A DNA stretch of 32,952 nucleotides from Eubacteriales bacterium (lineage in GTDB: Bacteria > Bacillota > Clostridia > Oscillospirales > CAG-272): the NCBI GenBank assembly GCA_045593345.1, contig JAZNWM010000089.1, positions 1 through 32,952 of the forward strand, read 5' to 3'. The notes under the pieces were generated by a model, which saw only the letters and a program-made list of their open reading frames with translations, made no database searches and was not told the DNA's origin. How positions within the stretch are numbered: the first letter of the stretch is position 1; each line of letters starts with the position of its first letter. This document shows, piece after piece, positions 1 through 20,012 of the stretch. Position numbers and translations under genes: made by a program.

Positions 1-115
1 GCTTCGTTTGGTATTCGCATACCGCAACAGCGGTATCTTGCCTGGCGAGGAGATGGTGTATGCAAGTATTACAACAAGTGTAATCAGCACAAATATCCCC
101 CCGAGCGGCAATACC
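1..115. repeat. Direct repeat copy 1 (113/115 nt identical to 13825-13939); may extend left of the window
   Basis: Manual alignment with offset 13824. The only differences are A/G at positions 65 and 71. Similarity collapses after position 115. Confidence 0.9.
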
Positions 116-346
116 GTAGACCGACCGATTATACTCCTTATGAGTACGTCTTTGGCGTTGGTGCTACGCACCCCGCATCGCCTCGCGATGCACTCACGGA
201 GCAATCTGCACACGCCTCGCTTGTGCGAGCACAGACTCGCTCTCGTTTGATTATGTAGCCTTCGGCTCAAACCGGTCGTTTCAGATTGAAGCCTTATATT
301 CCAAAAAGAAAAAGCCAAAACCAAACCGCAAGAGTTCAATTTTGAC

Positions 347-363
347 TTTTCTTGGTGGAGCAT
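347..363. repeat. Partial copy of the tRNA(CAT) 3' end; att-like left boundary of the island
   Basis: tggtggagcat (353-363) is identical to 14238-14248, the complement of the tRNA 3' end ATGCTCCACCA. With a 1-nt indel the match extends to ttttct / gtttct(g). Confidence 0.5.
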
Positions 364-416
364 TTTCAACGAACTTTGAACCAATTTAATGTATAGAATA
401 TTCTTTACGAATAATA

Positions 417-449
417 AAAGCCTTACTATCTTGCAGGTAGTAAGGCTTT
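417..449 (-). terminator. Rho-independent terminator downstream of CDS 535-2001 (palindromic, could act both ways)
   Basis: aaagccttacta-N9-tagtaaggcttt hairpin; T-rich tail on the minus strand. Confidence 0.7.
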
Positions 450-534
450 TGGGGAGCCGAAGTGTAGTTAAATCGAACTCAAAAATTAGAGCCGGGGATT
501 ACCCTTTAGATTTAACATGATACTATAAAAATGC

Positions 535-2001
535 TTACAGCCTTATTTTCAAGGCGGGAACCGTACCTAAGTTGGTATAGTCAACCCAGATAGAGCTATT
601 ACAATGTCCGTCTGTGCTACTTCTGTATGCATAGCCGCTACGGTTACAGTCGGGCGAGCGATGATACCACCAGCCGTTGCCGTAGTAGTCCTCCGTTGTT
701 ATCATCAGCGCTCCGAGTGCTCTTGAGTAATCCGATGTTATCATCTCTCTCGACTCATCTGCGGACTCGGAAGAAGAAAATCCGTAGGCTTCGTTGGTTG
801 CTTCCTCTTGAGAAAGAAGAAAAATCTTATCGTTGGTATTTTCACAAACGTATTCGTTAACACCTCCGTTATGTGCGGTTTCGTTGCCGTGGGGGTTAGT
901 GCTCTTTGCGCTGTTATCCACCTCGGTGATCAGAATTATTTCCTGCTGAAGCGCGCTGAATGCCGTTTCGTAGAAGGTTGCGTTAAGCCAGGCTCTTATT
1001 TCGCTGTACTTATAGTTATTTGCATAGGTGCCCTCGGGCACGCCGTCTGCGTTATTGTAGTATGTTTGATACCGGTCATAAAAATCCCATTGATATGGCA
1101 GGACGTCAATTATGCTATCGCAAAGGAGGAACGCCTCGCCATTTTCCTCGGAGAGTATTCTCCAACGGATGGGCTCAACCTTGAAGTAATATACGGTTCC
1201 TTTCGTTATGCTTGCTCCTGTGGAGAAGGTAAAGTCACTATAGTGAGGATCTGCACTTACCTTGGCATAATAGCATCCGTCGTCACCCAGGTAGTAGCCA
1301 CGTTCGTCGGTGGTTGAGGTAATGGTTACGCTATCGGCCTTTAACGTCTGGGGATATTCGCCGAAATAGATGTAATCGCCATCGCGGGTGTATGCCTTTT
1401 TGCCCTCTTTACCGCAGGTAGTACATACTCCGTCCTTGAAGGTGTGTATATCCTCAAGGCATTTGCGAAGGGCTGCTATCTCCTCATCCTTTTTCGCGGA
1501 GGCCTCGTTAATCTCGCCTACCAAAGCCTCGAGATTGGTTACCGTGTCATTAAGGCGGACAATCTGAGCTTCGAGATCCTCCTTCGTGCTGTTAAGCGAA
1601 GCCGCCTTTGCTTCAAGAGTCTCAACCTGCTCCTCAAGCTTTGATATTTCCTCCGAAAGTGCGTTGGAGTTGCCGTCCATAAGTGCCTTAAGCCTTGCGG
1701 TTTCGGTCTCAAGGTTTGTGATTTCTTCCTCAAGCGAGGCCTTTTCAGACTCAAGTGCGATCTTCTCCGCGCGGAGTGTTTCAAGGTCTGCCTTGAGTGA
1801 TGTTATCTCGGCAGACTGCTCCGCCTTTTCTGCTTCCAACTCAGCTATCTCATCGTTAGCTCCCTCGAGCTGTTCTGTCAATTCCGCAACCTGAGCGCTT
1901 AACGCCTCAACATCGCCGTCAGAGCCTGCACAGGCCGGCAAGCCAAAAAGCGACGTGCACATGAGTATTGTAAAAAGAATTAATGATATTATTTTTTTCA
2001 T
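535..2001 (-). CDS. Lipoprotein with a long N-terminal coiled coil and a C-terminal DUF6273-like domain
   Basis: Signal peptide with lipobox (LFGLPAC). About 150 aa of E/L/A heptad-like coiled coil. C-terminal motifs YIYFGEYPQ, IRWRIL, SEIRAWLN, DKIFLLSQEEA and WWYHRSP are typical of DUF6273 as I recall it. RBS AAGGAG. Confidence 0.75.
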   Translation of the reverse strand: MKKIISLILFTILMCTSLFGLPACAGSDGDVEALSAQVAELTEQLEGANDEIAELEAEKAEQSAEITSLKADLETLRAEKIALESEKASLEEEITNLETETARLKALMDGNSNALSEEISKLEEQVETLEAKAASLNSTKEDLEAQIVRLNDTVTNLEALVGEINEASAKKDEEIAALRKCLEDIHTFKDGVCTTCGKEGKKAYTRDGDYIYFGEYPQTLKADSVTITSTTDERGYYLGDDGCYYAKVSADPHYSDFTFSTGASITKGTVYYFKVEPIRWRILSEENGEAFLLCDSIIDVLPYQWDFYDRYQTYYNNADGVPEGTYANNYKYSEIRAWLNATFYETAFSALQQEIILITEVDNSAKSTNPHGNETAHNGGVNEYVCENTNDKIFLLSQEEATNEAYGFSSSESADESREMITSDYSRALGALMITTEDYYGNGWWYHRSPDCNRSGYAYRSSTDGHCNSSIWVDYTNLGTVPALKIRL

Positions 2002-2029
2002 TTTCTTTCTCCTTTCTACTCTACATGTC

Positions 2030-2515
2030 TTACTTCAAGATCTTGAACTTACCAATAATGGGAAGCACCTTTGCCCTTCCATTCAACGCGTTGATGATGC
2101 CAATGACGGAAAGAACCATGATGATAATGCTTACGACCGGGGCGAGAAGCCAACCCAGAATCGGGATTACCATAAGAATGGAAGAGGCAATTCCTCCGAG
2201 GAAGAGAACAAGTCCCTGGTTCGCGTGAAATCTTGCAAAAGGAGAGTCCTTCGCAGCAAGAAGAGGAATAAAGAACAGTATATAGGCAAGAACACCCATA
2301 ACTTTATTCTTTTCAACATCGTCCTTATCAAATTGTTCGATGGTGTCTGTCGTATTTCCTGGATTTATCTCCTTTGTCGCAGGAGCGTTCTGCTCTACCG
2401 CAGGCTCGGTGTTTATTTGCTCGGTTGTTGAGCTGGGTTCGACCGCCTGACCACATTCGGGACAGAATTTTGCATAATCTTCAATTTTTGTTCCACATTT
2501 TTCGCAGTATGCCAT
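2030..2515 (-). CDS. Zinc-ribbon membrane protein (N-terminal CxxC...CxxC, C-terminal DUF4870-like transmembrane (TM) region)
   Basis: Start moved to MAYCEKCG (ATG at 2515) because AGGAGG lies 7 nt upstream. CEKCG...CPECG zinc ribbon, then a low-complexity linker, then 3 hydrophobic helices with an HANQ motif. Confidence 0.75.
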   Translation of the reverse strand: MAYCEKCGTKIEDYAKFCPECGQAVEPSSTTEQINTEPAVEQNAPATKEINPGNTTDTIEQFDKDDVEKNKVMGVLAYILFFIPLLAAKDSPFARFHANQGLVLFLGGIASSILMVIPILGWLLAPVVSIIIMVLSVIGIINALNGRAKVLPIIGKFKILK

Positions 2516-2589
2516 AGTAGTTCCTCCTATTAAAAAATCTTTTTTGTTTTTAAAAATTCGCACACGCGGGCGATGGCTTACATTATACT

Positions 2590-3261
2590 TTATTTGCCGA
2601 TAGATAAAGAGCTTGTACCGTTTGCAAAGGTAATCGAGGCGATGTAGCCGTCTGCATTTTCGGCAGTAAAGGAATAAAGAACCATTTCACCAAATTCCCG
2701 ATCCTCGACAACCTCGTTGATATTAAAGCCTGCCGCCTTTACCTGCTCGACGTAATCCCTTATCTGTTCTACTGTTGCGTTCGTAAATGTAGCACCAAAG
2801 CTTTCACCCTCAATATACGTCGCCTGCAATTCAAGGCTCGGCTTGGGAACAAGCCTTGTATATTCGTTGTCGGGCCAATTGCCACCGATCTGTCCTTCAC
2901 CACCGTCTGCATCCTTGACTACCCAGCTGCCGTCAGGCTTCTGAACTACGACCGTACCGTCCTCATTATCTACAAAGGTCGTGCTACCGTCCGCACCGAA
3001 GGAAATATCGATCCCCTCCGCCTTTCCTTCCATAACAAGCTGCTGCTTGCTTGCTTTGTCCATTTGACCGTAGATCACTGTAGAGCTTCCAATACCTGCC
3101 AACAGAGAGTCGGTATTGCCACCGTTATTATTATCCTCGCCGTTATGCGAATTGTCGGGGTTGTTTTCTCCGTCACCCGAGGGGTTGTCGTCCTTATTTC
3201 CGCAGGCGGCAAGGCTAAATACCATTATTAAAATCAATAAAAATGCTAATATTTTTTTCAT
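2590..3261 (-). CDS. Hypothetical lipoprotein
   Basis: MKKILAFLLILIMVFSLAAC lipobox, then a G/N/D-rich linker. Good ORF with an RBS. Confidence 0.8.
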   Translation of the reverse strand: MKKILAFLLILIMVFSLAACGNKDDNPSGDGENNPDNSHNGEDNNNGGNTDSLLAGIGSSTVIYGQMDKASKQQLVMEGKAEGIDISFGADGSTTFVDNEDGTVVVQKPDGSWVVKDADGGEGQIGGNWPDNEYTRLVPKPSLELQATYIEGESFGATFTNATVEQIRDYVEQVKAAGFNINEVVEDREFGEMVLYSFTAENADGYIASITFANGTSSLSIGK

Positions 3262-3324
3262 TGTGTTATCCTCACTTTCTTATTATTGAATAGCACGCGT
3301 GCCATCAGCCAAATGGGTGTGTGA

Positions 3325-4308
3325 TCAATAAGTCAAATTTTCCACCATATCGGAGAAGCCAACCTCCAACAAGCAATCATAGGCATAGTAATTTGAGATA
3401 GCGTAGATTCCGTCTTTTTTGAGGCAGCAACGATAGCCGTCCTCACCGTTAGTTTCCCATTCTACCTCCCAGCCCAGATCCTTGAGCTGATGTGCATAGT
3501 CAATAGCATCCTGATTAGTAGCACAGTGATAATTAAACCACGCCGCGTAATATTCATCGGGAAGCTTATCCTTGCTTAAATCAAAGTCGACGTCATCGTA
3601 GCCGTAGGTGAAATCCTGAATGGTGTAGCCTTTGTTGTAGTCGCATTCCGTCATACCGCACTGAGGCAGAGGAATACCGTCAATAAACTCGGGAAGTGTA
3701 AACAAGGAATCTGTTGCACTTACGCTAACGGAATAATCATACGCCTCCTCGCTTATAGACTCACGAACGAAAATTTCCATAAACCAGCCGTTGCCAAAGT
3801 AATCGTAGTACGTCCACTCGCCCGTTTCCGTACAACCGCCCACCATACCCTTGGCTTCTACTGCCTCCGTAAAAGTGTTTAGCTGATCCTCGGTTGCATA
3901 AAAGAACACGCCGTATTCTCGATAATCTTCCTTGGACTCATAATATAGAGGACCTACGGCATAGGAACCATTTAGGGTATCGTGCTTGTAATCCTTAAAG
4001 GTAGTCTGATCCACCTTTACTCCCTCGGGGGGTGCCGGGAAGCAGTCCGGCAAAAACTCTTGATCCCACACATCGTAGATGTAGGCACCGTACCGGTTCT
4101 CGTCCCATCCCTCGGGCATCAAGCCTTCCAGCTTATCCATAGCATCCTCAAAATCTTCCACGTCTTCGTCCGAGATGATGGGATCACCGTTGCCGTTGTT
4201 GGAAGTGCCGGAGTCATCGCCATCTGTAGTTTTGTCGGTATCCTTACCGCAAGCGGCGAGGCTAAATACCATCGCTAAAGTCAGTAAAAGTGCCAATAGT
4301 TTTTTCAT
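3325..4308 (-). CDS. Hypothetical lipoprotein
   Basis: Start moved to MKKLLALLLTLAMVFSLAAC (ATG 4308), preceded by GGAGGAAATTA. The ATGA overlap with the upstream CDS stop suggests translational coupling. Confidence 0.8.
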   Translation of the reverse strand: MKKLLALLLTLAMVFSLAACGKDTDKTTDGDDSGTSNNGNGDPIISDEDVEDFEDAMDKLEGLMPEGWDENRYGAYIYDVWDQEFLPDCFPAPPEGVKVDQTTFKDYKHDTLNGSYAVGPLYYESKEDYREYGVFFYATEDQLNTFTEAVEAKGMVGGCTETGEWTYYDYFGNGWFMEIFVRESISEEAYDYSVSVSATDSLFTLPEFIDGIPLPQCGMTECDYNKGYTIQDFTYGYDDVDFDLSKDKLPDEYYAAWFNYHCATNQDAIDYAHQLKDLGWEVEWETNGEDGYRCCLKKDGIYAISNYYAYDCLLEVGFSDMVENLTY

Positions 4309-4679
4309 TGTAATTTCCTCCTGATTTGTTTTTTGTTGTGTTCGTCGTGGGAGTTCCTTCGACTTGCGCAATCCCGGCACAGGTCGTCTTCCTCCTCCAT
4401 TGCGAAGCATTCGTCGCAAACAAATCTGCCACAAGAGTTACATTGATTAAAACGTAGCCTTGCTTCCAGATTTGCCCTCTCGAAAGCCGCGTCGTGATCG
4501 ATACGGAAGAGAATGTCCTTTGCCTTTTTTTCGTCGTCGGATAGCGACTCCGAGAAGCCGTGAACGAACGGATATTCCTCGCTCGTCCATTCCCTTTCGC
4601 ATCGGTCGCAATAGAAGGAGAATTTGAAGTAGACGTCCGTCGATCTATCCCTATGCTTTTGGGTAATCGTTTTTAGCAT
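4305..4679 (-). CDS. Cysteine-rich cytoplasmic protein (putative zinc finger)
   Basis: Start moved to MLKTITQ (ATG 4679) with AGGAGG upstream. Motifs CDRC...CNSCGRFVCDEC...CRDC. No signal peptide. Confidence 0.7.
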   Translation of the reverse strand: MLKTITQKHRDRSTDVYFKFSFYCDRCEREWTSEEYPFVHGFSESLSDDEKKAKDILFRIDHDAAFERANLEARLRFNQCNSCGRFVCDECFAMEEEDDLCRDCASRRNSHDEHNKKQIRRKLQ

Positions 4680-4731
4680 CGCTATCTCCTCCTTCGTGCT
4701 TTTTGCAACATCATTCCTATTGCACATCTAA

Positions 4732-4761
4732 ATTATACCCGAAAAACTCACCGCCTGTCTA
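4732..4761 (-). promoter_or_regulatory. Sigma-A-type promoter for the 4679->535 operon
   Basis: Minus strand reads TAGACA-18 nt-TATAAT, about 45 nt upstream of the RBS of CDS 4305-4679. Confidence 0.55.
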
Positions 4762-4846
4762 TTACCCGCACATTACCCTTTCGGGTGATTTTTAGGGGGA
4801 AAAGGGGTATTTTTTGCAAAAAAACATTACCCATACGGGTATACCC
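4734..4846. promoter_or_regulatory. Cluster of (A/T)TACCC half-sites including two palindromes; candidate LuxR-type operators
   Basis: Half-sites: TATACCC 4734-4740, ATTACCC 4761-4767, GGGGTAT 4804-4810, TATACCC 4840-4846. Palindromes: ATTACCC-TTTC-GGGTGAT 4772-4789 and ATTACCC-ATAC-GGGTATA 4826-4843. Confidence 0.5.
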
Positions 4847-4870
4847 ATGGATTGTCGGTATTTTTGCATC

Positions 4871-4900
4871 AAAAAAGCCCGACCGTTTCCGATCGGGCTT
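4871..4900 (-). terminator. Rho-independent terminator after the beta-helix/LuxR gene
   Basis: Minus strand: AAGCCCGA-loop-TCGGGCTT followed by TTTTTT. Confidence 0.75.
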
Positions 4901-4913
4901 TCACCGTATTTTT

Positions 4914-7274
4914 TTACTTGAACAATGCAAACAATTCGTTACGTGAGGCAACTCCAAGCTTTGCATATATGCTCGTTATCTGCTTTTTGACCGTATTCTC
5001 GCTAATGTAAAGCATAGCAGCAATTTCGTTTCGTTGCTTGCCTTCGAGCAGAAGATCAAGCACCTCTTTTTCTCTCGGAGAGAGCATACTAGTGTCGGGT
5101 AATTTCTTTTCTGCGGTAACGGCAGGCTCACCGACAACGACGACCGTCTGTTCCTTCCGTCTGAATACCACAAGAGCAAGAGCCGCAAGACCGCCTGCAA
5201 ACAACACACCGAAGGTGATGATCAGCACCGTTGCGATAGGAAAGTCCTTTTCGTAGAATGCGTAATAGGTGACATCTCCTGCGTGTGTGAATATTTCGCC
5301 GTCCTCGATTTTATCACCCAACCCATCCTCGGTGCTAAACCAACCACCAAAGCTGTAACCCGATTTCTCGATAGCCTCTGGGAATGAAATAGACGCATCG
5401 TAGGTCTGCTGTACCGTGATGGTCTGCGCGTTGCCAAAATCAAAGGTCACCGTGTAAACGTTTGGAGTGAATACTGCGTGGAAATCTATGCTTTTGGTTT
5501 CGTTTCCTACGATGAAATATCGGTCTGCCTGATAATCAAAATTCTCGGCAAGTGTCCAAGAGGTGAGCGTATAGCCTGTCTTTTCAAAGGCAGGGCGCGT
5601 TGGATGTGTGCCTGAAGGAAGAACAACGGTTTCCTTGCAAACGCCGTCCATGAAGAATTTGAAGGTCACATCGTGATTGTTCGCACCTACGGTAAACGTA
5701 CCGTAGTAGTTTCTATCTCCCAGCTTTTCCTTGATGAAACTGGTGGAAACGGTGGGGGCGTGTACGAGATGACCTTCCTCGTTGTACCATTCAGCCGGGG
5801 CTGTGCTGCCGAAATAATTGTATCCGTTTTCCTCAGCGGGCTGTTCGACTTTCGGATTGTGGGTTTCATACAACTCGTCAACCACCAAATTCCCGTAGTA
5901 GTTGAGATAATTTATATCAAAAAAGTCGGGATACCACGAAAACCAAAGCCATCTATCCTCGCCGTATCCTGTATAATCGGACATTGCCGTTTTACAGGTG
6001 TTGTTCTCTATCGTACAGAACAGTAAATGAATTGATCGAGTGCTGTAATCAAGCGAGGGATTATAATCTGTAAAAATTGCGCCCATTGCATTCTCTGCGT
6101 AATTTTTACGGATCTCTGTGTTGCTTACGTTTACGCTTATTGCACCGTTGAGATAAATCGCGCCTCCGAGACCTTGATTGCTGGCAAGTCCGAGCGTGCT
6201 TCGCTTATCCTCAGTTTCCGGAATCGCCCTGTTCTCGGTAATATAGCAGTCCTCGATATCCACGCTTGATATATCTATTCCTATACCGCCGCCAACCGAC
6301 GCCTTGTTGCCGACAATTTTACAATTGCGAACAGTAATCTCCGAGCCGTCTGTGCATCCGATAGCACCTCCGCTTAACATATCTGCCCAAAATCTTTCAC
6401 CGCCGTAAAAGTAGTTCGCATCATTCCTCTCGAAAACGCATCCCTCAAAGGAGGCAGCAACGTTCCTCATATAGATAGCACCGCCACCGACAGCATTCTG
6501 AACAAATCCCGACTTGTTATCGTTAAAGCTGCAATCCTTAACGTTCAGAGTAACGTTCTTGTTATTCGCTTCCACGTATACAGCACCGCCGCCGTACAGT
6601 GATGCGTTGGAGGAAAAGCTACATCCCTCCAAATTAAGCTCTAATCTATACGGCACATTGTCGCCATGCTCGGCTTCAAGCCAGGGAGTCAGCGTATAAT
6701 CGGCGTAAAACGCGCGAATCGCAGGACCGTACGTATGCATATAATTTTTGAATTCACAATTTTTAAAGCCTGCGATTGCATTGCCCTTGCACTCAACGGC
6801 ATACTGATTTTTTAACGGATACGGAGATAATTCCTCACCCATACTATCGTATGAAAGCTGCCAATCCTCGTCCGTAATCACATTCGTATCAAGTCCTTCG
6901 TTAAAAGTGATTCCTTCAAATGAAAACGTGGAGTATTCGCCACCAATCTTCGTTCCGTTCAGTATGAAGCTCGCCCCTGTAAATACGGCGTTGCCGTCCG
7001 TCTTGCCGCTTTTTATAGTAATGTTTTTATCAATAATAATTCTTTCAATCGTATTAACGGCACCGGTAGAGTTTAGATTGAAATCAATATCGCCAACGAG
7101 AATGATATCGCCGTTCTCCGCCTTGTTCAGAGCGTTGATAAAATCATTTCTTGTCGTAATCAGCTCGTCCTCACGGGAGATTGCCTCCGCACCGACCGCT
7201 ACATTAATCGCAAAAGCCAAGCACAAAAACAACAAACACGAGAGAACATATAAAAATTTATGCTTTATCTTCAT
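4914..7274 (-). CDS. Membrane-anchored regulator: secreted beta-helix plus Listeria-Bacteroides-type repeats, one TM helix, C-terminal LuxR/GerE HTH
   Basis: Start moved to MKIKHKF (ATG 7274; GGAGGA RBS).
- N-terminal signal/anchor.
- Repeated GGGAIY / GGAIG / NxxxxGG motifs typical of right-handed beta-helix (pectin-lyase fold) proteins.
- GYTLTSW and GYSFGGWF motifs (Flg_new-type repeats).
- TM helix PIATVLIITFGVLFAGGLAALALVVF followed by RRK.
- C-terminus LSPREKEVLDLLLEGKQRNEIAAMLYISENTVKKQITSIYAKLGV is a canonical LuxR-type HTH. Confidence 0.8.
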   Translation of the reverse strand: MKIKHKFLYVLSCLLFLCLAFAINVAVGAEAISREDELITTRNDFINALNKAENGDIILVGDIDFNLNSTGAVNTIERIIIDKNITIKSGKTDGNAVFTGASFILNGTKIGGEYSTFSFEGITFNEGLDTNVITDEDWQLSYDSMGEELSPYPLKNQYAVECKGNAIAGFKNCEFKNYMHTYGPAIRAFYADYTLTPWLEAEHGDNVPYRLELNLEGCSFSSNASLYGGGAVYVEANNKNVTLNVKDCSFNDNKSGFVQNAVGGGAIYMRNVAASFEGCVFERNDANYFYGGERFWADMLSGGAIGCTDGSEITVRNCKIVGNKASVGGGIGIDISSVDIEDCYITENRAIPETEDKRSTLGLASNQGLGGAIYLNGAISVNVSNTEIRKNYAENAMGAIFTDYNPSLDYSTRSIHLLFCTIENNTCKTAMSDYTGYGEDRWLWFSWYPDFFDINYLNYYGNLVVDELYETHNPKVEQPAEENGYNYFGSTAPAEWYNEEGHLVHAPTVSTSFIKEKLGDRNYYGTFTVGANNHDVTFKFFMDGVCKETVVLPSGTHPTRPAFEKTGYTLTSWTLAENFDYQADRYFIVGNETKSIDFHAVFTPNVYTVTFDFGNAQTITVQQTYDASISFPEAIEKSGYSFGGWFSTEDGLGDKIEDGEIFTHAGDVTYYAFYEKDFPIATVLIITFGVLFAGGLAALALVVFRRKEQTVVVVGEPAVTAEKKLPDTSMLSPREKEVLDLLLEGKQRNEIAAMLYISENTVKKQITSIYAKLGVASRNELFALFK

Positions 7275-7479
7275 TATAGTTTTCCTCCACATCTGACAAA
7301 TCCACACCGTTATTCTTGCACCAAATAATAAACTTGCCGATTGCTCTTGCCTGTGGCTTACGATTCTCACGCTCCCAACGGCTGACGGTTGAATAGGAAA
7401 CACCGACCGCATCGGCAAATTGCTGTTGGCTTAGTAACCTCTCGGCTCTTATATATCTGATTTTTTGCGATAGAGTCAT
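7258..7479 (-). CDS. XRE-family HTH transcriptional regulator (73 aa)
   Basis: LSQQQFADAVGVSYSTVSRWERENRKP is a classic HTH_3 signature. GGAGGA RBS. The 3' end overlaps the next CDS by 17 nt. Confidence 0.85.
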   Translation of the reverse strand: MTLSQKIRYIRAERLLSQQQFADAVGVSYSTVSRWERENRKPQARAIGKFIIWCKNNGVDLSDVEENYNEDKA

Positions 7480-7513
7480 GCATTTTCCTCCATAATGTTT
7501 CTTAATATGTCAT

Positions 7514-7542
7514 ATTATATCACAAAATAGCCATTTCGTCAA
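7514..7542 (-). promoter_or_regulatory. Sigma-A promoter of the XRE/LuxR pair
   Basis: Minus strand TTGACG-17 nt-TATAAT. The word TCGTCAATAA occurs twice (7536-7545, 7564-7573), so the -35 sits in a direct repeat. Confidence 0.65.
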
Positions 7543-7625
7543 TAAGCTTTGATGTATTTACGCTCGTCAATAAAAAGAAAGGCACCACTTGGATGACTAC
7601 CGTAAATTGGTTTTATATTCAAATC

Positions 7626-7655
7626 AAAAAGGACGAGAAGCTTCTCGTCCTTTTT
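7626..7655. terminator. Perfect 15+15 palindromic bidirectional terminator
   Basis: AAAAAGGACGAGAAG|CTTCTCGTCCTTTTT. Confidence 0.85.
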
Positions 7656-7719
7656 GCACTCTTCCTTGACTGCAAGGTGTAGTGCGTTATACCGTATTAT
7701 TTGTTTCGGGCGGTAAGAG

Positions 7720-7940
7720 AATGATGTTTTTGCTTGCGCAAAAATGATGTTATTCGCTTCGCTCATAATGATGTTGCTCGCCAAGGCTCGCAATGATGTG
7801 ATGTTTGCCATAAAATGTGGCGAAGCCACACATCATTAGCGAAGCGTCATCACCGGACAAAGTCCTACATCTTTGCCGAAGGCAACATCACTTGCCCGCA
7901 AGGGCAAACATCATTCGGCTGACCTGCTTTATCGCAGGTC
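7720..7940. repeat. Divergent array of ~9 short units (small GNRA/GAA-loop hairpin plus ACATCATT-like word), followed by a hairpin
   Basis: AATGATGT at 7720, 7743, 7767 and 7792. The inverse word ACATCA(T/C) occurs at 7830, ~7846, 7867, 7885 and 7908. Hairpins at 7816-7830, 7855-7865, 7873-7885, 7892-7907 and 7921-7940. Confidence 0.8.
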
Positions 7941-8047
7941 GCCGTTTCGTGATACTTTCTGTCATTGGTGACCCGGAGTATTACAAGGTCGAATACGGGA
8001 TCTTGCTGTGTGAAAATGCTACGTCCAATTACAGCCTTTGTCCATAA

Positions 8048-10312
8048 TTATGTTTCATTTAAAAGAGATTTAACGTAATTAAGTTTTTCTAAAATTACAT
8101 TTAAACAGATCAACGTTAATTTAAATCCGTTCAACAATTCACCTCCGAAAATAAAAGCATTTCCGTGAGCGCACTCGTTCCTGATATTAAGGAAATTATC
8201 ATTATACATACACTGGTATACAAAGAACAAGTCGGGAACATTTTCTAAAGAAGAGGTTTCTTTATAAATTTCGAGAATGATATCTTGCAAAACGCTACTT
8301 GGATCTTTTTGGTGTATATACTCGTCCGTTTTTTCCTTAAACGGCACAATTGATAAATAAGAACCGTATTCTCTTATTTTGTTCTCTAATATAGGGAACA
8401 ATTGAGTAACATGTGCAAGATATATCTCGTCATTTAAATCAATCAATTTGTATTCAGATAATTCTGCTTTTATTTTTTCGTACAAAGTTTTTTCATCGGA
8501 AAATAGTGATATGCTCAAAAGAACGCCCTGAATCATGTCATCATAGATTGCGTTTAGCATATTCATAGGTTTCATTTGATTCAAGAACTTGTATGATTTA
8601 GTTTCAAGAATATTTTCTATGATGCTTAAAAACGCTTGATCCGTATCGTGTCTTTCAACATTTCGTATTCTCTCATATGGAAAAGATTTGCTGATTATTA
8701 GACTTGTAAACAACGAAGAGAATACCAATTCCGAGTGGAGAGATATTTTGTCTACCAAACGATCTTCTGTTAAGGAGATAATGCTACGTACATATGTGCT
8801 TGGTTTGTTAACTGCAAGCGCATTAGCAATATCAACAGATTCTTTTTTGATTTCAAGCGGTGTTTTGATAGAATGCATTTTTCCAAGGCACTTTTCATAG
8901 TAAATGCTTTGCCATGCCCTTTGCAATCCGATAAGCAACTGTTTTACTACTCTTTTTTCAACATTTGGATTTTGCAATTGTTTGAGCAAGAAAATTAAAA
9001 ACTCGTGGAATAAAGATGCCAAGGCAACGGATTGTTCTTCGTCAATCAGTTTTTGAAATACGTCAACTACATTTTCTAAAACTTCTGTTGTTTGTCCTTG
9101 AATTACAAATTCATTTCTGCAGTATTCAAAAAAATCTGTTGATTTCTTTATTTTAGTCCAACCGCTAGCCAAACTATCATTGTAGTCTTTAAGTAATTGT
9201 GTTTGCTCTTTGGTTGTAGTGCAACCTATTCTTTTTAAATGGCTTATGATTGTAGGAGAGGATAATTTCCCAATCTCAGCAACAAAATCGCGCATATACA
9301 GCTTTTTTATTGAATCTGATACGATCTTATCTTTGAGTAAAGCGGTTATAGTTAAAAGCGATGAGCATTCTATTTTATACCATGGTGTATCATCGTTAAC
9401 TGTTTTAAGATATTCTATTATCAACTCAAAATGCTTTGATATCGTTTGCTCGGATGGAATGCGGTTATACAAATAGTATCTAACCGTTTCAATAACGAAC
9501 GAGGATATATCGCAATTAAAATAATCAATTAACGAATCCAAAACATCTTCAGTCCACAAAGATATGTCGGGAATTGTTCTATCACTAAAAATGATAGCGG
9601 GTCTTAGTTTTCCGTCATCAATTTTGGTGTTGAGCATATCAAATATATACTGTTCTTCCCATGAAACGTTATTAGGATGATTTATTCTTCGATAATTAAA
9701 CGCATCCGCGGCAACTATTTCATTCCTATGTATTTCCAATAAACTCAAATTAGCGGGAATTACAACTTCATTAAGATTGTTTTCAAAGCAACTGATCCAA
9801 GTGCATTTATCCGAGTAATTTAGTGAGTTGAGTCGTGCAATTAAATTATCTTTCTCCTCTTTAACGTCATGTAAGTTGCTTAATTGAAAATAATTGTTAA
9901 ACTGGAATATACCCACTGAAAAAATATAGTTTCTGGGATTCTTATAGTTTAGTATTTTGGTTACATGTATTACAATTAGCAACAATTTGGAAAATTCGTC
10001 TGTAAAAGAATCCCACAATTCTTCGAAAGAGACTTTTTCACAGAAAAACAGGGCTAACGAGTTAACATTTTTTAACCATGGTTTATTTATCGTAATATTT
10101 ATATCCCCTAAATTATGGATGCTGACGAGGTGAGAATAAACATCGGAAATATCGTGGTAAGAATTTAAAAACTCTCCCCAGGTTGTAGTGTTCGCAGTGA
10201 ATCCTTTGAAATCAGCTTCAGTTTGATCTATAAACCACTGCCAATCTTTACTTAAATTTAATAATCCATCGGAAAATTTAACTTTTGTTTCGTGTTCATA
10301 GTAATTTTTCAT
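8048..10312 (-). CDS. Orphan 754-aa AT-rich protein with a C-terminal HEPN-like (DUF4209/Abi_C-like) motif and a second internal IRNxxxH motif
   Basis: Long uninterrupted ORF in AT-rich DNA, with a GAGGGA RBS. LNIRNECAHG (aa 708-717, nt 8165-8185) fits the Rx4-6H HEPN signature and the 'NLRNxxAHG' pattern I recall for DUF4209. ERIRNVERHD (aa 547-556, nt 8648-8668) repeats IRNxxxH. No P-loop or other recognisable motif. Confidence 0.6.
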   Translation of the reverse strand: MKNYYEHETKVKFSDGLLNLSKDWQWFIDQTEADFKGFTANTTTWGEFLNSYHDISDVYSHLVSIHNLGDINITINKPWLKNVNSLALFFCEKVSFEELWDSFTDEFSKLLLIVIHVTKILNYKNPRNYIFSVGIFQFNNYFQLSNLHDVKEEKDNLIARLNSLNYSDKCTWISCFENNLNEVVIPANLSLLEIHRNEIVAADAFNYRRINHPNNVSWEEQYIFDMLNTKIDDGKLRPAIIFSDRTIPDISLWTEDVLDSLIDYFNCDISSFVIETVRYYLYNRIPSEQTISKHFELIIEYLKTVNDDTPWYKIECSSLLTITALLKDKIVSDSIKKLYMRDFVAEIGKLSSPTIISHLKRIGCTTTKEQTQLLKDYNDSLASGWTKIKKSTDFFEYCRNEFVIQGQTTEVLENVVDVFQKLIDEEQSVALASLFHEFLIFLLKQLQNPNVEKRVVKQLLIGLQRAWQSIYYEKCLGKMHSIKTPLEIKKESVDIANALAVNKPSTYVRSIISLTEDRLVDKISLHSELVFSSLFTSLIISKSFPYERIRNVERHDTDQAFLSIIENILETKSYKFLNQMKPMNMLNAIYDDMIQGVLLSISLFSDEKTLYEKIKAELSEYKLIDLNDEIYLAHVTQLFPILENKIREYGSYLSIVPFKEKTDEYIHQKDPSSVLQDIILEIYKETSSLENVPDLFFVYQCMYNDNFLNIRNECAHGNAFIFGGELLNGFKLTLICLNVILEKLNYVKSLLNET

Positions 10313-10704
10313 AATTCCCTCGCTAAAATAATAAGTTGTTTTTCAACATTTTTTGAAATATGGAGCTTAGTTTTAAAAACCTATAATTTTATTTGAAATA
10401 CAGCACTTTCACCGCCCTTAAGTATTATTATATCACAAAGTTTTACAATTCAAAACATATAATACCAATGCTTTGGCAAGTTGCTTCGAAAACTCAGTTC
10501 TATTCAATTGATCATAACTTTTAAGGGGTTTGTTCGATGAAAACATATTTGCCTCATTAAATTGTGATAATACAATGAATTAATTACACCTTATATAACA
10601 TTATACCGCTAAAATCGACAAAATTCTTCAAAAAAACAAAAAAATTATAAAAACTTATTTTTTATATATTTTCCCTCCCGAGGTGCTAATTGTCGCATAC
10701 TTTT

Positions 10705-10858
10705 CGTATAAGTCAATGTCGGGTCGGAAATTAGCACTGAAAAATTGAATAGCCAAGTTCCAAATTTATGGATAGAGCCAAGTAGCTGTAAAAGGTTACT
10801 TGGCTTTTTTCTTTTTACTAAAACGCACTAATTTCTGTCCCTCGTTGACTTATACATA
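10705..10858. repeat. Imperfect ~33-bp inverted repeat (10705-10737 / 10826-10858) bracketing an 88-bp segment
   Basis: Both arms share the blocks CTAATTTC and TTGACTTATAC. An extra copy of GTGCTAATT lies at 10683-10691. Confidence 0.7.
10776..10811 (+). terminator. Rho-independent terminator inside the inverted-repeat-bracketed segment
   Basis: AGCCAAGTA-N12-TACTTGGCT followed by TTTTTT. A second AGCCAAGT word lies at 10751-10758. Confidence 0.65.
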
Positions 10859-10947
10859 CCGAGTTGGATATGGCTTTCTTTATACCAAAGTATGCACAAT
10901 GCACCTTGCCGGAAGGCAAAAATAAAAATATACGGAGGTATAGAAAA

Positions 10948-11247
10948 ATGAAAAAAGTGTATTACTCGGTTAAGAGGTACAAAAGAAACGAAATGATCGA
11001 ACAGAAAGGAGTCGGTTTTATCACCGATACGGATTTAGTTATCGCTTGTATAAGTCAGAATAACAAACCGTATATCAAAGTCTTTGAAGACTGTGTCAAA
11101 GACTGTCACGCTATCCCCTACAGACCTAATGAATATCAAGGTGGATACTATGAAATCCGTGAGATTGAAGTTGATACAGGTAAGGATAATTACGATACCC
11201 GTGAAATTCAACTTGACTATAAAATCTGGTACAAGCTTGTGGATTAA
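10948..11247 (+). CDS. Hypothetical protein (99 aa)
   Basis: Start moved to MKKVYYS (ATG 10948), 8 nt after GGAGG. No recognisable motif. Confidence 0.6.
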   Translation: MKKVYYSVKRYKRNEMIEQKGVGFITDTDLVIACISQNNKPYIKVFEDCVKDCHAIPYRPNEYQGGYYEIREIEVDTGKDNYDTREIQLDYKIWYKLVD

Positions 11248-11275
11248 GAAATAAAAGTATAGGGAGATACAGAAA

Positions 11276-11761
11276 ATGAAAGAAACAATTAAAATAGATA
11301 TATCAAAAACATGCACAACAGATTTAGACACCGTGATCACACGGGAAAATGTGCTTTATTTATGCGAAAATATGGCCTTATGTGCCCTGAAACGTATGAT
11401 TGGATACAGAGGTGATTACGAGCTTCGTATGTACTACAATCTTGTTGGTGACATAAAAGGCAAAAACAATATAAATCATATATTTTCAGACAGCTATGAT
11501 TTAGTACAAACAGCCTGTCTGTTTTTACTTAACTATGTAGGTATGAAATTAGGAGATACTGTAATTGACAGGTACAATAAACAAGTTACAATAAGGCACG
11601 CTTGTTATAGTGAAATCGGTGCGGCTTTTTACAAAAGGTGGAATTATCACCAAAGAACCTATCCCATCAGTTATAAGGATGCCGAGGAAGATATAGAATT
11701 TATAGAAGAAATACAATTAACGAAAGCCAAGAAAGAGCCGATACAATCGTGGCACGAATGA
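11276..11761 (+). CDS. Hypothetical protein, weakly sigma-70 region-2-like (mobile-element regulatory module)
   Basis: RBS GGGAGA. SDSYDLVQTACLFLLNYVG resembles sigma region 2.1/2.2 (DLVQE..fl). The context (followed by a region-4-like HTH and a recombinase remnant) matches the ends of clostridial integrative elements as I recall them. Confidence 0.45.
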   Translation: MKETIKIDISKTCTTDLDTVITRENVLYLCENMALCALKRMIGYRGDYELRMYYNLVGDIKGKNNINHIFSDSYDLVQTACLFLLNYVGMKLGDTVIDRYNKQVTIRHACYSEIGAAFYKRWNYHQRTYPISYKDAEEDIEFIEEIQLTKAKKEPIQSWHE

Positions 11762-11922
11762 ACCTTAAAGAAAAGCACAAGAAAGTGTTAGATTGCTATC
11801 TTAAGGGGATGGGCGTTGTGGAAATATCTAAATCGTTAGGAATTGCCTACGCTACGGTTTGGCGACACAGAATGCTCTTGCAGAAACGGTATATCGAAGT
11901 TACGGGATACCAGGTCCAATGA
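11758..11922 (+). CDS. Small HTH protein (54 aa), sigma-70 region-4/LuxR-like; not in the supplied ORF track
   Basis: Hand translation: MNLKEKHKKVLDCYLKGMGVVEISKSLGIAYATVWRHRMLLQKRYIEVTGYQVQ*. ATGA start/stop overlap with the upstream CDS. Confidence 0.6.
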   Translation: MNLKEKHKKVLDCYLKGMGVVEISKSLGIAYATVWRHRMLLQKRYIEVTGYQVQ

Positions 11923-11972
11923 AAATAATACTTCCATACTCAATATGGCATATTTACAGATTAATACATAAT

Positions 11973-12006
11973 GGGAGAGCCCTAAAAAGCTCTCCCTGCT
12001 TTTTTG
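11973..12006 (+). terminator. Rho-independent terminator
   Basis: GGGAGAGC-N8-GCTCTCCC followed by tgcTTTTTT. Confidence 0.8.
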
Positions 12007-12077
12007 AAAAAATTCATATTTACATTGAAAAAACATCGCAAAAGTGAATAAAAAGTGAAAATTTACTGAAAATTCAC

Positions 12078-12107
12078 TTGACAATCGAACAATCGTGCGT
12101 ATATAAT
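12078..12107 (+). promoter_or_regulatory. Sigma-A promoter of the AlbA_2-type gene
   Basis: TTGACA-18 nt-TATAAT, about 30 nt upstream of the ATG. Confidence 0.65.
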
Positions 12108-12138
12108 ATATTTAGATTATTATGTGGAGGTATCAACA

Positions 12139-13440
12139 ATGAGCTTCGAAACTGAAAATATTGAATTTAAATTGCAATTCACCGAGGATTTGTACAAGGA
12201 GGTAATTGCGTTTGCCAATACCGACGGTGGTGTAATCTACATTGGAATTAACAACAATGGCGAGGCTGTCGGAATAGATAACGTTGACGAGAATTACACA
12301 CGTATCACCAACGGAATTCGTGATGCGATAATGCCCGACGTTACTATGTTTGTTAGATACACTATCCAGGAAAACAAGGTTGTTAAAATTTCTGTAGGTG
12401 AAGGATCATACAAGCCTTACTATCTGAAATCCAAAGGCCTAAAGCCCAGTGGTGTGTTTGTAAGACAGGGTACGTCTACCGCACCTGCATCGCCCGAACA
12501 AATACGCGCGATGATTAAAGAGTCGGACGGTGACAACTTTGAAGCTATGCGTTCTATGGATCAAGACTTAACCTTCGAGAATGCAAAAACTGCATTCAAA
12601 AAATACGGTATTGAATTTGCACAAAACAAGTACAGAGCACTTGGTATCACGCACCCCACCGAAGAACTGTACACCAATCTCGCCCTTATCATCTCGGACC
12701 AATGCACACACACAACAAAGGTTGCAGTATTCGGTGATGACGCAAATACCGAGTTTAGAGATAGCAAGGAGTTCGGCGGATCAATATTCAAGCAGCTTGA
12801 CGATACCTATTCGTATTTAACGTTGTGCAACAAAAAGGTTGCAACCTTCCAGGGACTTGAAAGAATAGAAAAGGCAGATTATCCGGACGCAGCTCTTCGA
12901 GAGGCATTACTTAATGCACTCGTTCACAGAGATTATAGCTTCAGTGGCAGTGTAATCATCAATGTGAATGATAATGAAATGGAATTCATCTCCATAGGCG
13001 GACTTCTTCCTGGGCTTTCTCCCGATGATATAAGAAGCGGAATTTCGCAGCCGAGAAACAAAAATCTTGCGGACATATTCCATCGTTTGCATCTTATTGA
13101 ATCCTATGGTACGGGTATAAGAAAGATATACAATCTGTATTCTAAATGCTCGGTTCAGCCTCGAATTGAAGTGACTTCAAACACATTTAAGATCATTCTT
13201 CCAAACATGAATAGTGTGGAAGTATCAAGCGTCGAATCTCCCAAAATCCTAGCAATATCGCCACAAAAGCAAACTATACTTGACTTTATTGACCAAAATG
13301 GCTATATTACTGAACCACAGATTATGGAGTTGGTAAAGGTAAAAAAGACAAGAGCGTATAACATAGCAAAAGAAATGCACGCCGATGGACTGATAAAACC
13401 AATCGGCCGAGGCAGTGCTAAAAAATATGTGAGAATGTAA
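12139..13440 (+). CDS. AlbA_2 (Schlafen-like) / HATPase_c_4 / winged-HTH protein (COG2865-type 'RecG-like' putative regulator)
   Basis: Start moved to MSFETENIEFK (GGAGG 8 nt upstream). Family-typical motifs: E..EFK......L.KEVIAFANTDGGVIYIGI..NGEAVG, then ALREALLNALVHRDY and YGTGIRKI. Confidence 0.8.
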   Translation: MSFETENIEFKLQFTEDLYKEVIAFANTDGGVIYIGINNNGEAVGIDNVDENYTRITNGIRDAIMPDVTMFVRYTIQENKVVKISVGEGSYKPYYLKSKGLKPSGVFVRQGTSTAPASPEQIRAMIKESDGDNFEAMRSMDQDLTFENAKTAFKKYGIEFAQNKYRALGITHPTEELYTNLALIISDQCTHTTKVAVFGDDANTEFRDSKEFGGSIFKQLDDTYSYLTLCNKKVATFQGLERIEKADYPDAALREALLNALVHRDYSFSGSVIINVNDNEMEFISIGGLLPGLSPDDIRSGISQPRNKNLADIFHRLHLIESYGTGIRKIYNLYSKCSVQPRIEVTSNTFKIILPNMNSVEVSSVESPKILAISPQKQTILDFIDQNGYITEPQIMELVKVKKTRAYNIAKEMHADGLIKPIGRGSAKKYVRM

Positions 13441-13450
13441 AAAAAGATAG

Positions 13451-13759
13451 TTGACAGACAAGGAAAACAATTATGGCAATCAAAAAAATGAATTATATAT
13501 GATGCTTGAAAAAGAAGAGATAGAAGCTTTTTACGTTAAGGCACTAAAATGCGAATCCAGACTGATAATTGAGCTCCTGATCAAAGAAATAGTGCTTTAT
13601 AATGACAAGATGGAAATTTATTTGAATACCCCGGTCAAGAACGGTCCCGATGAAAATCGGGGCTTTTCTTTTTATAACAAGACTATTAATTTAAGATATT
13701 ATTCCAAATATTCAAGATTGTTCGCTGGGAAAAGTGCAATTATAGATATTCGTGTGTAA
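13451..13759 (+). pseudogene. C-terminal remnant of a large serine recombinase (DUF4368-like tail)
   Basis: LIIELLIKEIVLYNDKMEIYLNTP resembles the conserved C-terminal 'l..lIdkI.Vy.d.kIeI.f' tail of large serine recombinases. No catalytic N-terminus is present, and the frame opens with TTG directly after the preceding gene. Confidence 0.4.
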
Positions 13760-13824
13760 TCAAGGATTTTGCTCCTTTGGAGCAATATACCTGCACTCGC
13801 TGCTGGAAAGCGAGCTTTCCGACA

Positions 13825-13939
13825 GCTTCGTTTGGTATTCGCATACCGCAACAGCGGTATCTTGCCTGGCGAGGAGATGGTGTATGCAGGTATTGCAACA
13901 AGTGTAATCAGCACAAATATCCCCCCGAGCGGCAATACC
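13825..13939. repeat. Direct repeat copy 2 (see 1-115)
   Basis: 113/115 identity to window positions 1-115. Confidence 0.9.
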
Positions 13940-13978
13940 TTATCTTTGGCACAGCCAAAGAGCAAGGGCGAGTCAATC

Positions 13979-14029
13979 TTGATGCTCCATCACAGAAACA
14001 AAAAAGGCACCCCCAACGGGTGCCGTTTC
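13979..14029. repeat. Duplicate of the tRNA(CAT) trailer/terminator module (copy of 14186-14235)
   Basis: ttgatgctccatcacagaaacaaaaaaggcaccc is identical in both copies. The hairpin loop differs (ccaac vs gatt). Both copies end gggtgccgtttc. Confidence 0.85.
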
Positions 14030-14204
14030 AAGGATTTTGACGCTTTGCGTCAATATTTCCACGACCTTCGCCTTGAAAGCTAGCTTTCAGATCTTCGGTC
14101 GGGAAATGCGAACCTTTTCGTGCACAAAAACAAGTGCTAAAATTTGCAAAACAAAGCAAGGTGCACGAACAAGGTTTGAGTCTGATTGATGCTCCATCAC
14201 AGAA

Positions 14205-14231
14205 ACAAAAAAGGCACCCGATTGGGTGCCG
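14205..14231 (-). terminator. Terminator of tRNA(CAT)
   Basis: Minus strand GGCACCC-AATC-GGGTGCC followed by TTTTTT, directly 3' of the tRNA. Confidence 0.8.
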
Positions 14232-14237
14232 TTTCTG

Positions 14238-14314
14238 TGGTGGAGCATCAAGGACTCGAACCTTGGACCGACCGGTTATGAGCCGGTAGCTCTAACCAAC
14301 TGAGCTAATGCTCC
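14238..14314 (-). tRNA. tRNA with anticodon CAT (elongator Met or lysidine-type Ile2), encoded CCA
   Basis: Reverse complement: GGAGCATTAGCTCAGTTGGTTAGAGCTACCGGCTCATAACCGGTCGGTCCAAGGTTCGAGTCCTTGATGCTCCACCA. It folds as a cloverleaf with anticodon loop CTCATAA. The body resembles Bacillus tRNA-Ile(CAU) as I recall it, but identity cannot be decided by eye. Confidence 0.9.
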
Positions 14315-14330
14315 AAATATTAGCCTGTAT

Positions 14331-14359
14331 ATTTTATCAAATTAAAAAAGGTTTGTCAA
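14331..14359 (-). promoter_or_regulatory. Promoter of tRNA(CAT)
   Basis: Minus strand TTGACA-17 nt-TAAAAT, about 16 nt upstream of the tRNA 5' end. Confidence 0.65.
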
Positions 14360-14469
14360 TAGGTTTTAGGAAAAAAGAAATTAATTGATTGCCTATATTC
14401 GACATTTGCCCTCTTTTATGAAAAAAAGCGTGGAAAAATAAAAAATATTCTTATTTTTCAAAAAATGTA

Positions 14470-14498
14470 TTGACAAACGCAAAATTATTTGCTATAAT
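14470..14498 (+). promoter_or_regulatory. Promoter of tRNA-Thr
   Basis: TTGACA-17 nt-TATAAT, about 33 nt upstream of the tRNA. Confidence 0.7.
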
Positions 14499-14531
14499 TA
14501 TCAAGCGTCACGAGGAAATATCCTTGTGTTT

Positions 14532-14607
14532 GCTGCTATGGCTCAGTTGGTAGAGCACATCCTTGGTAAGGATGAGGTCCCCAGTTCGAATCTGGGTAGC
14601 AGCTCCA
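14532..14607 (+). tRNA. tRNA-Thr (anticodon GGT), encoded CCA
   Basis: GCTGCTATGGCTCAGTTGGTAGAGCACATCCTTGGTAAGGATGAGGTCCCCAGTTCGAATCTGGGTAGCAGCTCCA. Acceptor stem GCTGCTA/TAGCAGC; anticodon loop TTGGTAA. Confidence 0.92.
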
Positions 14608-17995: not shown

Positions 17996-18021
17996 GGGGC
18001 TATCTCACACGAGATAGCCCC
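17996..18021. terminator. Hairpin terminator between convergent genes
   Basis: GGGGCTATCTC-ACAC-GAGATAGCCCC. Confidence 0.7.
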
Positions 18022-18168
18022 AAAGCTGTTTTATGGTTATTTTATAGAAAAAATATGAAAAATTACTCGGTTTCCTCATCGGTGGGGTAAATAAACTCCA
18101 GCGTACCGTCAAGGTAGGTCTCGATATCCTCGTCCATAGGGACGACAATTCCGTTTGGCATTATATAG

Positions 18169-18804: not shown

Positions 18805-18854
18805 AACAGTTCTCCTCTTGATTATGTATTTTTGAATTATTGATCATAGATTTT

Positions 18855-19820: not shown

Positions 19821-19849
19821 ATCATTCTCCTTATAGTATATTTTCTTTC

Positions 19850-19879
19850 ATTATATCACACGGCTAAATACCTTGTCAA
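19850..19879 (-). promoter_or_regulatory. Promoter of the AT-rich lipoprotein pair
   Basis: Minus strand TTGACA-18 nt-TATAAT. Confidence 0.6.
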
Positions 19880-20012
19880 CAAAAAGTAATTAACCCATCG
19901 GGCTCTACCGTCTTTCTTGTTTTTTTCAAAAAATACCCCTCTATATATTAAGACGAAAAAATGACGAAAAGGTTTCAGAAAAATGATATTTTTTTAAAAA
20001 ATATAAAAAAGA

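Follow-up and report, generated by a model that had tools for sequence, protein, structure and literature searches.

The stretch of DNA analysed here (the window) is the whole 32,952-nucleotide contig JAZNWM010000089.1 of a Eubacteriales bacterium, and our subject is a minus-strand gene within it that encodes a 754-residue protein carrying two copies of the motif I-R-N-x-x-x-H. The open reading frame (ORF), 8048-10312 (-), is complete, begins with ATG and has a Shine-Dalgarno ribosome-binding site (RBS), GAGGGA, at 10317-10322 (-), 4 nucleotides ahead of the start codon. The C-terminal motif, IRNECAH, covers residues 710-716 (nucleotides 8185-8165) and the internal one, IRNVERH, residues 549-555 (nucleotides 8668-8648), with a spacing of 161 residues between their arginines. 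An earlier reading of the letters without database searches (the sequence-only reading) had reported this ORF and both motifs at these coordinates, and the sequence confirms them; it had also described an AT-rich gene, the largest of its island, behind a leader of about 550 bp and with no co-oriented partner. Composition agrees, with a G+C content (GC) of 0.321 in the gene and 0.298 in the upstream gap (10313-10863, 551 bp) against 0.465 and 0.487 in the window flanks (1-7000 and 15000 to the end). The low-GC island extends from about 7500 to 14500 and terminates at tRNA-Met and tRNA-Thr genes; the 754-aa gene is indeed the largest in it, an 834-aa ORF lying just beyond its border. The closest upstream ORF, 10864-11247, is divergent. 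The closest co-oriented downstream genes begin about 570 bp off (HTH_3, 7258-7479) and outside the 3.3-kb module listed below, so that the absence of an operon partner stands. The features of the locus are as follows.

8048-10312, minus strand: gene of the 754-aa protein, an unannotated member of a ~750-aa family (ORF call, homolog searches, AlphaFold2 (AF2) model)
8438-10312, minus strand: N-terminal all-alpha region of ~625 residues, a putative sensor or regulatory module (conservation, AF2; invariant N140, N179, W467, P545)
8648-8668, minus strand: I549-R-N-V-E-R-H555, a clade-specific Rx4H look-alike (conservation in 76 members, profile comparison)
8048-8437, minus strand: HEPN-like C-terminal domain, residues ~626-754 (AF2 helices, DUF4209 matches, alignment of 28 domains)
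8372-8386, minus strand: E643-N-K-I-R647, Ex3[KR] motif in the first helix of the HEPN-like domain (69 of 76 members)
8165-8182, minus strand: R711-N-E-C-A-H716, canonical HEPN Rx4H with Asn after Arg and followed by G717, predicted catalytic (invariance among 76 members)
10313-10863, no strand: AT-rich intergenic region of 551 bp between the 754-aa gene and the divergent ORF 10864-11247, holding the RBS and promoter-like sites
7962-11234, no strand: 3.3-kb module comprising the gene, 86 bp downstream and ~920 bp upstream (blastn against contigs L005, L006 and L007)

The sequence-only reading had called the protein an orphan. As regards annotation this is correct, since the window protein alone has no match in Pfam, NCBIfam, PADLOC or the PDB sequences; as regards ancestry it is not, because homologs fall into 273 clusters. 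A word-index homolog search found 6 relatives only, also with alignments of 7 and 76 sequences as the query. The clusters (50% identity) were obtained at E<=1e-3 when 1.84 billion cluster representatives were searched exhaustively with a profile; 139 of them were reached at E<=1e-30. About 75 of the top 150 profile matches are 700-800 aa long and align end to end with the window protein. In a scan of GTDB representative genomes, the family gene was located at 52 loci, among them Lactobacillus iners, Anaerococcus, mitis-group Streptococcus and S. zalophi, Abiotrophia, Erysipelothrix, many Clostridia, Lachnospiraceae and Oscillospiraceae, Collinsella, Atopobium and Actinomyces, and a few Bacteroidota or Melainabacteria-like metagenome-assembled genomes. 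The ~750-aa family is genuine, has one architecture throughout and is horizontally scattered in host-associated bacteria.

Conservation was counted in an alignment of 76 full-length members (A2), whose invariant residues are N140, N179, W467, P545, P640, E643, N709, R711, N712 and H716. Four of these lie in the C-terminal motif, whose consensus is N-[IV]-R-N-[ED]-C-[IV]-H-G: Rx4H is present in 76/76 members, as are N709, R711, N712 and H716 individually, Asn follows Arg without exception, and G717 is found in 72. Some 68 residues upstream, an Ex3[KR] motif occurs in 69 of the 76 members (E643 in 76, R647 in 67). Active HEPN domains are distinguished by Rx4-6H with a polar residue (N, D or H) after the arginine and by an upstream Ex3[KR] (Anantharaman et al. 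2013, PMC3710099), and the family has both. When the C-terminal 235 residues of 47 diverse members were scanned against Pfam, DUF4209 (PF13910) matched 31 at E<=10 and 3 at E<=1e-3, with a best value of 2.4e-6. It was the sole Pfam family at E<=1e-3; the second family, RiboL-PSP, is another HEPN family and matched 2 of the 47. Among nine divergent full-length members DUF4209 was the top match in eight, at 12-20.6 bits against a cut-off of 22.3, and the matches lie consistently over the RNxxxH region (profile positions ~38-77). The sequence-only reading had likened the C-terminal motif to the DUF4209 core, and DUF4209 is the one Pfam family that recurs; it had also envisaged HEPN bundles in two segments, of which the C-terminal one matches a HEPN family among members and the internal one does not. 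DUF4209 has been equated with the C6orf70 (ERMARD) HEPN family, which extends from bacteria to eukaryotes, is predicted to be active, is fused to helical repeats and is found 'in R-M related operons' (R-M, restriction-modification; PMC3710099). A C-terminal HEPN-type domain of the DUF4209/C6orf70 kind is supported, and the window protein is, as judged by sequence comparison, a distant relative of DUF4209 and not a formal Pfam member.

The predicted structure depended on alignment depth. From 7 sequences, AF2 produced a poor model (predicted local distance difference test, pLDDT, 65.7) with meaningless Foldseek output; from the 76-sequence alignment, pLDDT rose to 93.3 with a predicted template modelling score (pTM) of 0.77. 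This second model is all-alpha except for a small beta region at 229-247. Its C-terminal helices comprise 632-652, which bears the Ex3R, 671-686, 693-702, a short helix at 710-715 (RNECAH) and a long one at 723-753. HEPN domains fold as an up-down bundle of four helices with the motif where the last core helix begins; the model gives the final ~125 residues four main helices and puts RNxxxH on a short helix ahead of the last of them, an arrangement compatible with a HEPN bundle. For the whole chain, Foldseek returned only generic alpha-solenoids (exportin- and SF3B1-like) with template modelling (TM) scores <=0.22. The N-terminal region matched no Pfam family in the window protein or in the nine divergent members, including TPR and WD40 repeats, and no ATPase or P-loop family was detected in any of these proteins.

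The internal motif behaves differently. On shuffling the protein 20,000 times, two Rx4H motifs arose in 7% of cases and two IRNx3H motifs in none, so that the pair is unusual as a string and its meaning must come from conservation. As far as the aligned sequences tell, family-wide constraint falls on the C-terminal copy only. At the internal site R550 is retained in 10 of the 76 members, N551 in 6, R554 in 27, H555 in 49, D558 in 57 and P545 in 76; Rx4H is found there in 5/76, namely the window's clade at >=79% identity and one unrelated member, and is missing already from relatives at ~40% identity (P0010, P0012, P0014, P0016). What the family loosely keeps is F-P-x(~9)-[RK]-H-[DE]-[IV]-D ahead of helix 556-571, which is not a HEPN signature. 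Profile comparison by hhalign of six N-terminal segments with the C-terminal domain gave probabilities of 0.2-2.4% (2.0-2.4% for residues 480-625 or 500-625) and revealed no second HEPN-like segment among them. An internally duplicated HEPN domain was rejected on these values of at most 2.4%, and a Cas13-like two-HEPN chain, defined by two conserved Rx4-6H motifs, was rejected on the same values together with the 5/76 count. The sequence-only reading had proposed that the two motifs form an intramolecular Cas13-like site and had itself named a lack of conservation of IRNVERH among homologs as grounds for abandoning the idea; with R550 in 10 of 76 members, conservation largely refutes it.

Genomic neighbourhoods were compared by calling and clustering ORFs in 60 loci, in which the family genes form 30 groups at 80% identity. 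No neighbour cluster is common to the 30 groups, gaps on both sides of the gene mostly exceed 200 bp, and no conserved small ORF lies within 700 bp upstream or 500 bp downstream. The adjacent conserved antitoxin or MNT gene that characterizes HEPN toxin-antitoxin (TA) systems (RnlAB/LsoAB, HEPN-MNT) is likewise absent from the 30 groups. In 21 of 22 groups the family gene has a lower GC than its flanks, the mean difference being 10 points. Pfam domains were counted in the 134 genes that lie no more than three places from the family gene (29 groups), giving guaA 6, Resolvase 5, tyrosine integrase 4, ResIII 3, AAA_21 3, Mob_Pre 2 and HamA 2; PADLOC identified GajA, DdmD-like, type III methyltransferase, type I restriction endonuclease, PsyrT and PDC-S01 among the same neighbours. 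Across loci, the neighbours include integrases, resolvases, relaxases, type I and type III R-M systems, TIR, SIR2 and PIN. The sequence-only reading had expected a stand-alone gene in mobile or defence contexts, and this description fits: the groups share no neighbour, and integrases, relaxases, R-M and Gabija-like genes are found nearby.

Close relatives of the window copy adjoin integrase, relaxase and TIR genes, or PcfJ/PcfK/ArdA genes. In particular, the module 7962-11234 is 95-97% identical by blastn to the metagenomic contigs L005, L006 and L007, whose flanks are otherwise different and whose contexts hold PcfJ/PcfK/ArdA-type conjugative element genes. The window island itself contains a Schlafen-AlbA_2/HATPase_c_4 gene and small helix-turn-helix (HTH) genes; no recombinase is among its genes, and no CRISPR array or cas genes lie near the 754-aa gene. 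Elsewhere, the family gene lies between PIN_12 and AAA_15/21 genes (L003) or, in Erysipelothrix (L019), in the order lysS, family gene, SNF2 helicase, type III R-M. Five mitis-group loci (L023, L024, L028, L030 and L052, from Streptococcus oralis, peroris, infantis, australis and an uncultured Streptococcus) have the order hsdR, an optional DUF6261 gene, the family gene, hsdS 12-14 bp downstream, either AAA_21+DUF4435 or HAD+KAP NTPase, and hsdM. This streptococcal type I R-M operon seems to be an insertion hot spot for defence genes between hsdR and hsdM. Embedding in a type I R-M operon was seen in this one clade and neither in the window nor in most other groups.

In Listeria booriae and a related element, the gene follows guaA or an integrative mobilizable element (IME) and precedes GajA-like and GajB-like genes. 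The Gabija-like pair (L001 12321-15070, L002 12320-15066) is co-oriented with the family gene, 54-58 bp downstream of it, and consists of a GajA-like protein of 548 aa (AAA_15 + OLD-TOPRIM) and a UvrD-like protein of only ~368 aa; the short pair may form an operon with the family gene or may merely be an adjacent system. Gabija linkage as a general trait, or as a three-gene variant, was rejected because it occurs in this one group and neither in the window nor in the other 29 groups. At six loci from five groups (L001, L010, L011, L013, L020, L021), guaA (GMP synthase) immediately precedes the family gene, which suggests that islands or IMEs repeatedly insert at the 3' end of guaA.

HEPN RNases normally build their active site from two opposed Rx4-6H motifs given by two domains. 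The reading we favour, and consider probable, is that the 754-aa protein is a solo, horizontally mobile effector in which a large N-terminal all-alpha region is joined to a single C-terminal HEPN RNase domain of the C6orf70/DUF4209 type and which acts in abortive infection or defence. The ~750-aa proteins are best filed as a new, undescribed family inside a well-known kind, the solo HEPN effectors. Because each chain carries a single Rx4H, we infer a homodimer or a larger assembly of identical chains, with two HEPN domains from separate chains probably forming a composite, metal-independent RNase site. The N-terminal region would hold this site inactive until an infection cue arrives, which might be a phage protein, a nucleotide-derived ligand or the loss of R-M function; the activated enzyme would then cut cellular RNA (tRNA, mRNA or rRNA), leading to abortive infection or growth arrest. 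Precedents exist in the single-HEPN defence proteins HepS (PMC13043305), ApeA (bioRxiv 10.64898/2026.01.26.701840) and Tha, which form oligomers that stay inactive until a cue from the phage arrives, whereupon they cut tRNA or bulk RNA.

Comparison with known systems places the family close to several of them and inside none. C6orf70 (ERMARD)/DUF4209 proteins share the C-terminal HEPN domain, the RNxxxHG-type motif and the upstream Ex3[KR], and their bacterial members resemble the family in being large helical fusions that occur in R-M-related operons (PMC3710099); in contrast, most family members score below the DUF4209 gathering threshold, their N-terminal ~625 aa match no Pfam family, and they form a tight ~750-aa group of their own. 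HepS, the 'HEPN Solo' protein of prophage Gifsy-1 (PMC13043305), is likewise encoded by a lone gene, with neither a partner nor an inhibitor gene in its neighbourhood, and has one HEPN Rx4-6H in each chain, and its active sites form between protomers of an oligomer (PMC13043305), which is the likely working analogy for the family. However, HepS is prophage-encoded with its motif at R100-H105, whereas the family protein has 754 aa with a huge N-terminal region and was not found in phage or IMG/VR collections, and no sequence relation between the two was detected. ApeA (HEPN_Apea), an anticodon nuclease activated by deoxydinucleotides (bioRxiv 10.64898/2026.01.26.701840), is also a stand-alone, single-gene HEPN defence protein; it has a separate ligand-sensing pocket, is an oligomer and acts by abortive infection (bioRxiv 10.64898/2026.01.26.701840), but the family matches neither Pfam HEPN_Apea nor PADLOC ApeA and has an unrelated N-terminal architecture. 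PrrC and RloC carry a C-terminal HEPN RNase, and prrC sits inside a type I R-M operon (PMC2610378, PMC3458546) as the family gene does in mitis-group streptococci; they differ in an N-terminal ABC-ATPase that is not detectable in the family, whose R-M linkage is specific to that clade and not found in the window. Cas13 is similar as a big, mostly helical single polypeptide with HEPN chemistry, yet its chain contains a pair of conserved HEPN domains and it uses a crRNA, and the family conserves one motif. The family is not a formal member of the DUF4209, ApeA, PrrC/RloC, HEPN-TA, Gabija or Cas13-type families.

Several observations weigh against the solo-effector reading. The window protein has no Pfam match even at E<=10, and most DUF4209 matches in the family stay under the gathering score, the family consensus reaching 15.6 bits against the cut-off of 22.3. 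Foldseek of the whole chain against PDB and BFVD gave nothing at E<1e-3 (E>=0.008), a query that cannot isolate the HEPN domain, and PDB sequence-profile searches with C-terminal alignments of 235 and 130 aa yielded nothing relevant. No relative was found in plasmid or phage collections by tblastn, nor in the IMG/VR scan. PADLOC v2 holds no model for the ~750-aa family: at E<=10, PADLOC-DB v2.0.0 returned 0 matches for the window protein, and 18 members gave three single-member matches only, with E values of 0.006-0.03, although this is the 2023 release and a later catalogue could already hold the family. The defence context was judged qualitatively. Finally, RNase activity, toxicity and phage protection are so far predictions for every member of the family.

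Among the alternatives, the HEPN RNase could be the selfish toxin of a mobile element, serving post-segregational stabilisation or competition between elements and not phage defence. The gene does lie at the borders of islands and of integrative elements, mobilizable or conjugative, and travels as a compact 3.3-kb module, and HEPN toxins of TA systems are common (PMC3710099). We nevertheless consider this unlikely: the 30 groups offer no antitoxin-like partner or conserved small ORF, a protein of 754 aa with a conserved non-catalytic region of 625 aa looks more like a sensor-effector than a TA toxin, and the gene is repeatedly embedded in R-M and Gabija-like defence loci.

A second alternative is a PrrC-like guard of restriction-modification, inactive within a type I R-M complex and firing once a phage anti-restriction factor disables that complex. 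PrrC itself is silenced by its linked type I R-M system (PMC2610378, PMC3458546), and in the five mitis-group streptococcal loci named above the family gene occupies the classical prrC position, between hsdR and hsdS in one co-oriented operon; in L019 it abuts the SNF2 helicase and type III R-M genes. As an account of the family this is improbable. Type I linkage is found in one of 30 groups, the ABC-ATPase domain of PrrC is absent, and the streptococcal operons also hold unrelated inserts (AAA_21+DUF4435, KAP NTPase), so that they may be plain insertion hot spots. A guard role may exist in the streptococcal clade but cannot extend to the family as a whole, since most copies, the window's included, have no R-M neighbour. 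The N-terminal ~625 residues, which have no PDB or BFVD relative, might constitute a new kind of infection sensor on a DUF4209-type HEPN RNase that in oral streptococci acts as an ATPase-less, PrrC-like back-up firing when type I R-M is disabled; we regard this combination as doubtful.

The protein could also be a non-catalytic or housekeeping helical protein that uses a HEPN-like domain for ligand binding or for RNA processing unrelated to conflict. Non-catalytic HEPN binders exist (PMC3710099), and the whole-chain model weakly resembles alpha-solenoid scaffolds; but such domains typically lose Rx4-6H (PMC3710099), which is invariant here, and the sporadic distribution across phyla with low-GC island signatures, the absence from most relatives and the differing neighbourhoods between groups make a role of this kind very improbable. 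Scarcely credible is a single chain whose two HEPN domains bring R550/H555 and R711/H716 into one composite RNase site as in Cas13: the two motif strings do co-occur in the window protein and its >=79%-identical relatives, their pairing never arose by shuffling, and the moderate conservation of H555 and D558 suggests some role for the internal segment, but R550 and N551 are rarely kept, Rx4H is confined there to 5/76 members against 76/76 at the C terminus and is lost at ~40% identity, and neither hhalign nor Pfam finds a HEPN domain at the internal site.

Should the solo-effector reading be true, the single-gene HEPN families that act by abortive infection would gain another member, found in Firmicutes and Actinobacteria of the gut, mouth and vagina (hosts such as Lactobacillus iners, Anaerococcus, mitis-group Streptococcus, Collinsella and Atopobium), and the bacterial branch of the C6orf70/DUF4209 HEPN lineage would become accessible to functional study for the first time. 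Its eukaryotic counterpart, ERMARD, is not known to have any characterized biochemistry. The 754-aa protein does not supply a new scaffold of the Cas13-like programmable or dual-HEPN type. The remaining interest lies in the confidently modelled N-terminal fold, which has no structural relative and makes this putative sensor region a reasonable target for trigger discovery, and in the R-M-embedded streptococcal clade.

Around the gene, a promoter-like site is seen in the 551-bp leader at 10453-10424 (-), but such sites are no more frequent than in shuffles and give no evidence of function; a promoter and terminator scan near the gene did not rise above shuffles, and an Rfam scan of the leader found no match. 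Downstream, on the same strand and ~130 nt past the stop codon, a full-length match to the Gut-1 RNA motif (RF01706) lies at 7842-7916 (-), outside the 3.3-kb module; its score of 44.4 bits (E 2.3e-6) falls short of the gathering score, 50, and it is overlapped by one arm of an inverted repeat of 33 nt (7719-7751 and 7884-7916). Directly left of the island, the 834-aa ORF (4914-7418, -) combines Chlamydia-PMP-like repeats, a Listeria-Bacteroides repeat and a C-terminal LuxR/GerE HTH, and it overlaps the 3' end of the small HTH_3 gene at 7258-7479.

Within the island, the Schlafen AlbA_2 + HATPase_c_4 protein is encoded at 12124-13440 (+). In Clostridium sp. OM02-18AC, the family gene is followed, as its next co-oriented neighbour downstream, by a homolog of this Schlafen protein (L037, 12916-14352) that falls into one blastp cluster with it. 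At the right edge of the island, two perfect 34-nt direct repeats occur 207 nt apart (13979-14012 and 14186-14219), together with the stretch 14231-14252. Each repeat reproduces, in inverted orientation, the 3' end of the neighbouring tRNA-Met gene (14238-14314, -) and is followed by a GC-rich hairpin; tRNA-Thr comes next at 14532-14607. These repeats may be remnants of successive integrations. A second low-GC patch at about 18000-20000 (GC 0.36 against ~0.50 in its flanks) contains the ORFs 18169-18804 (-) and 18855-19820 (-).

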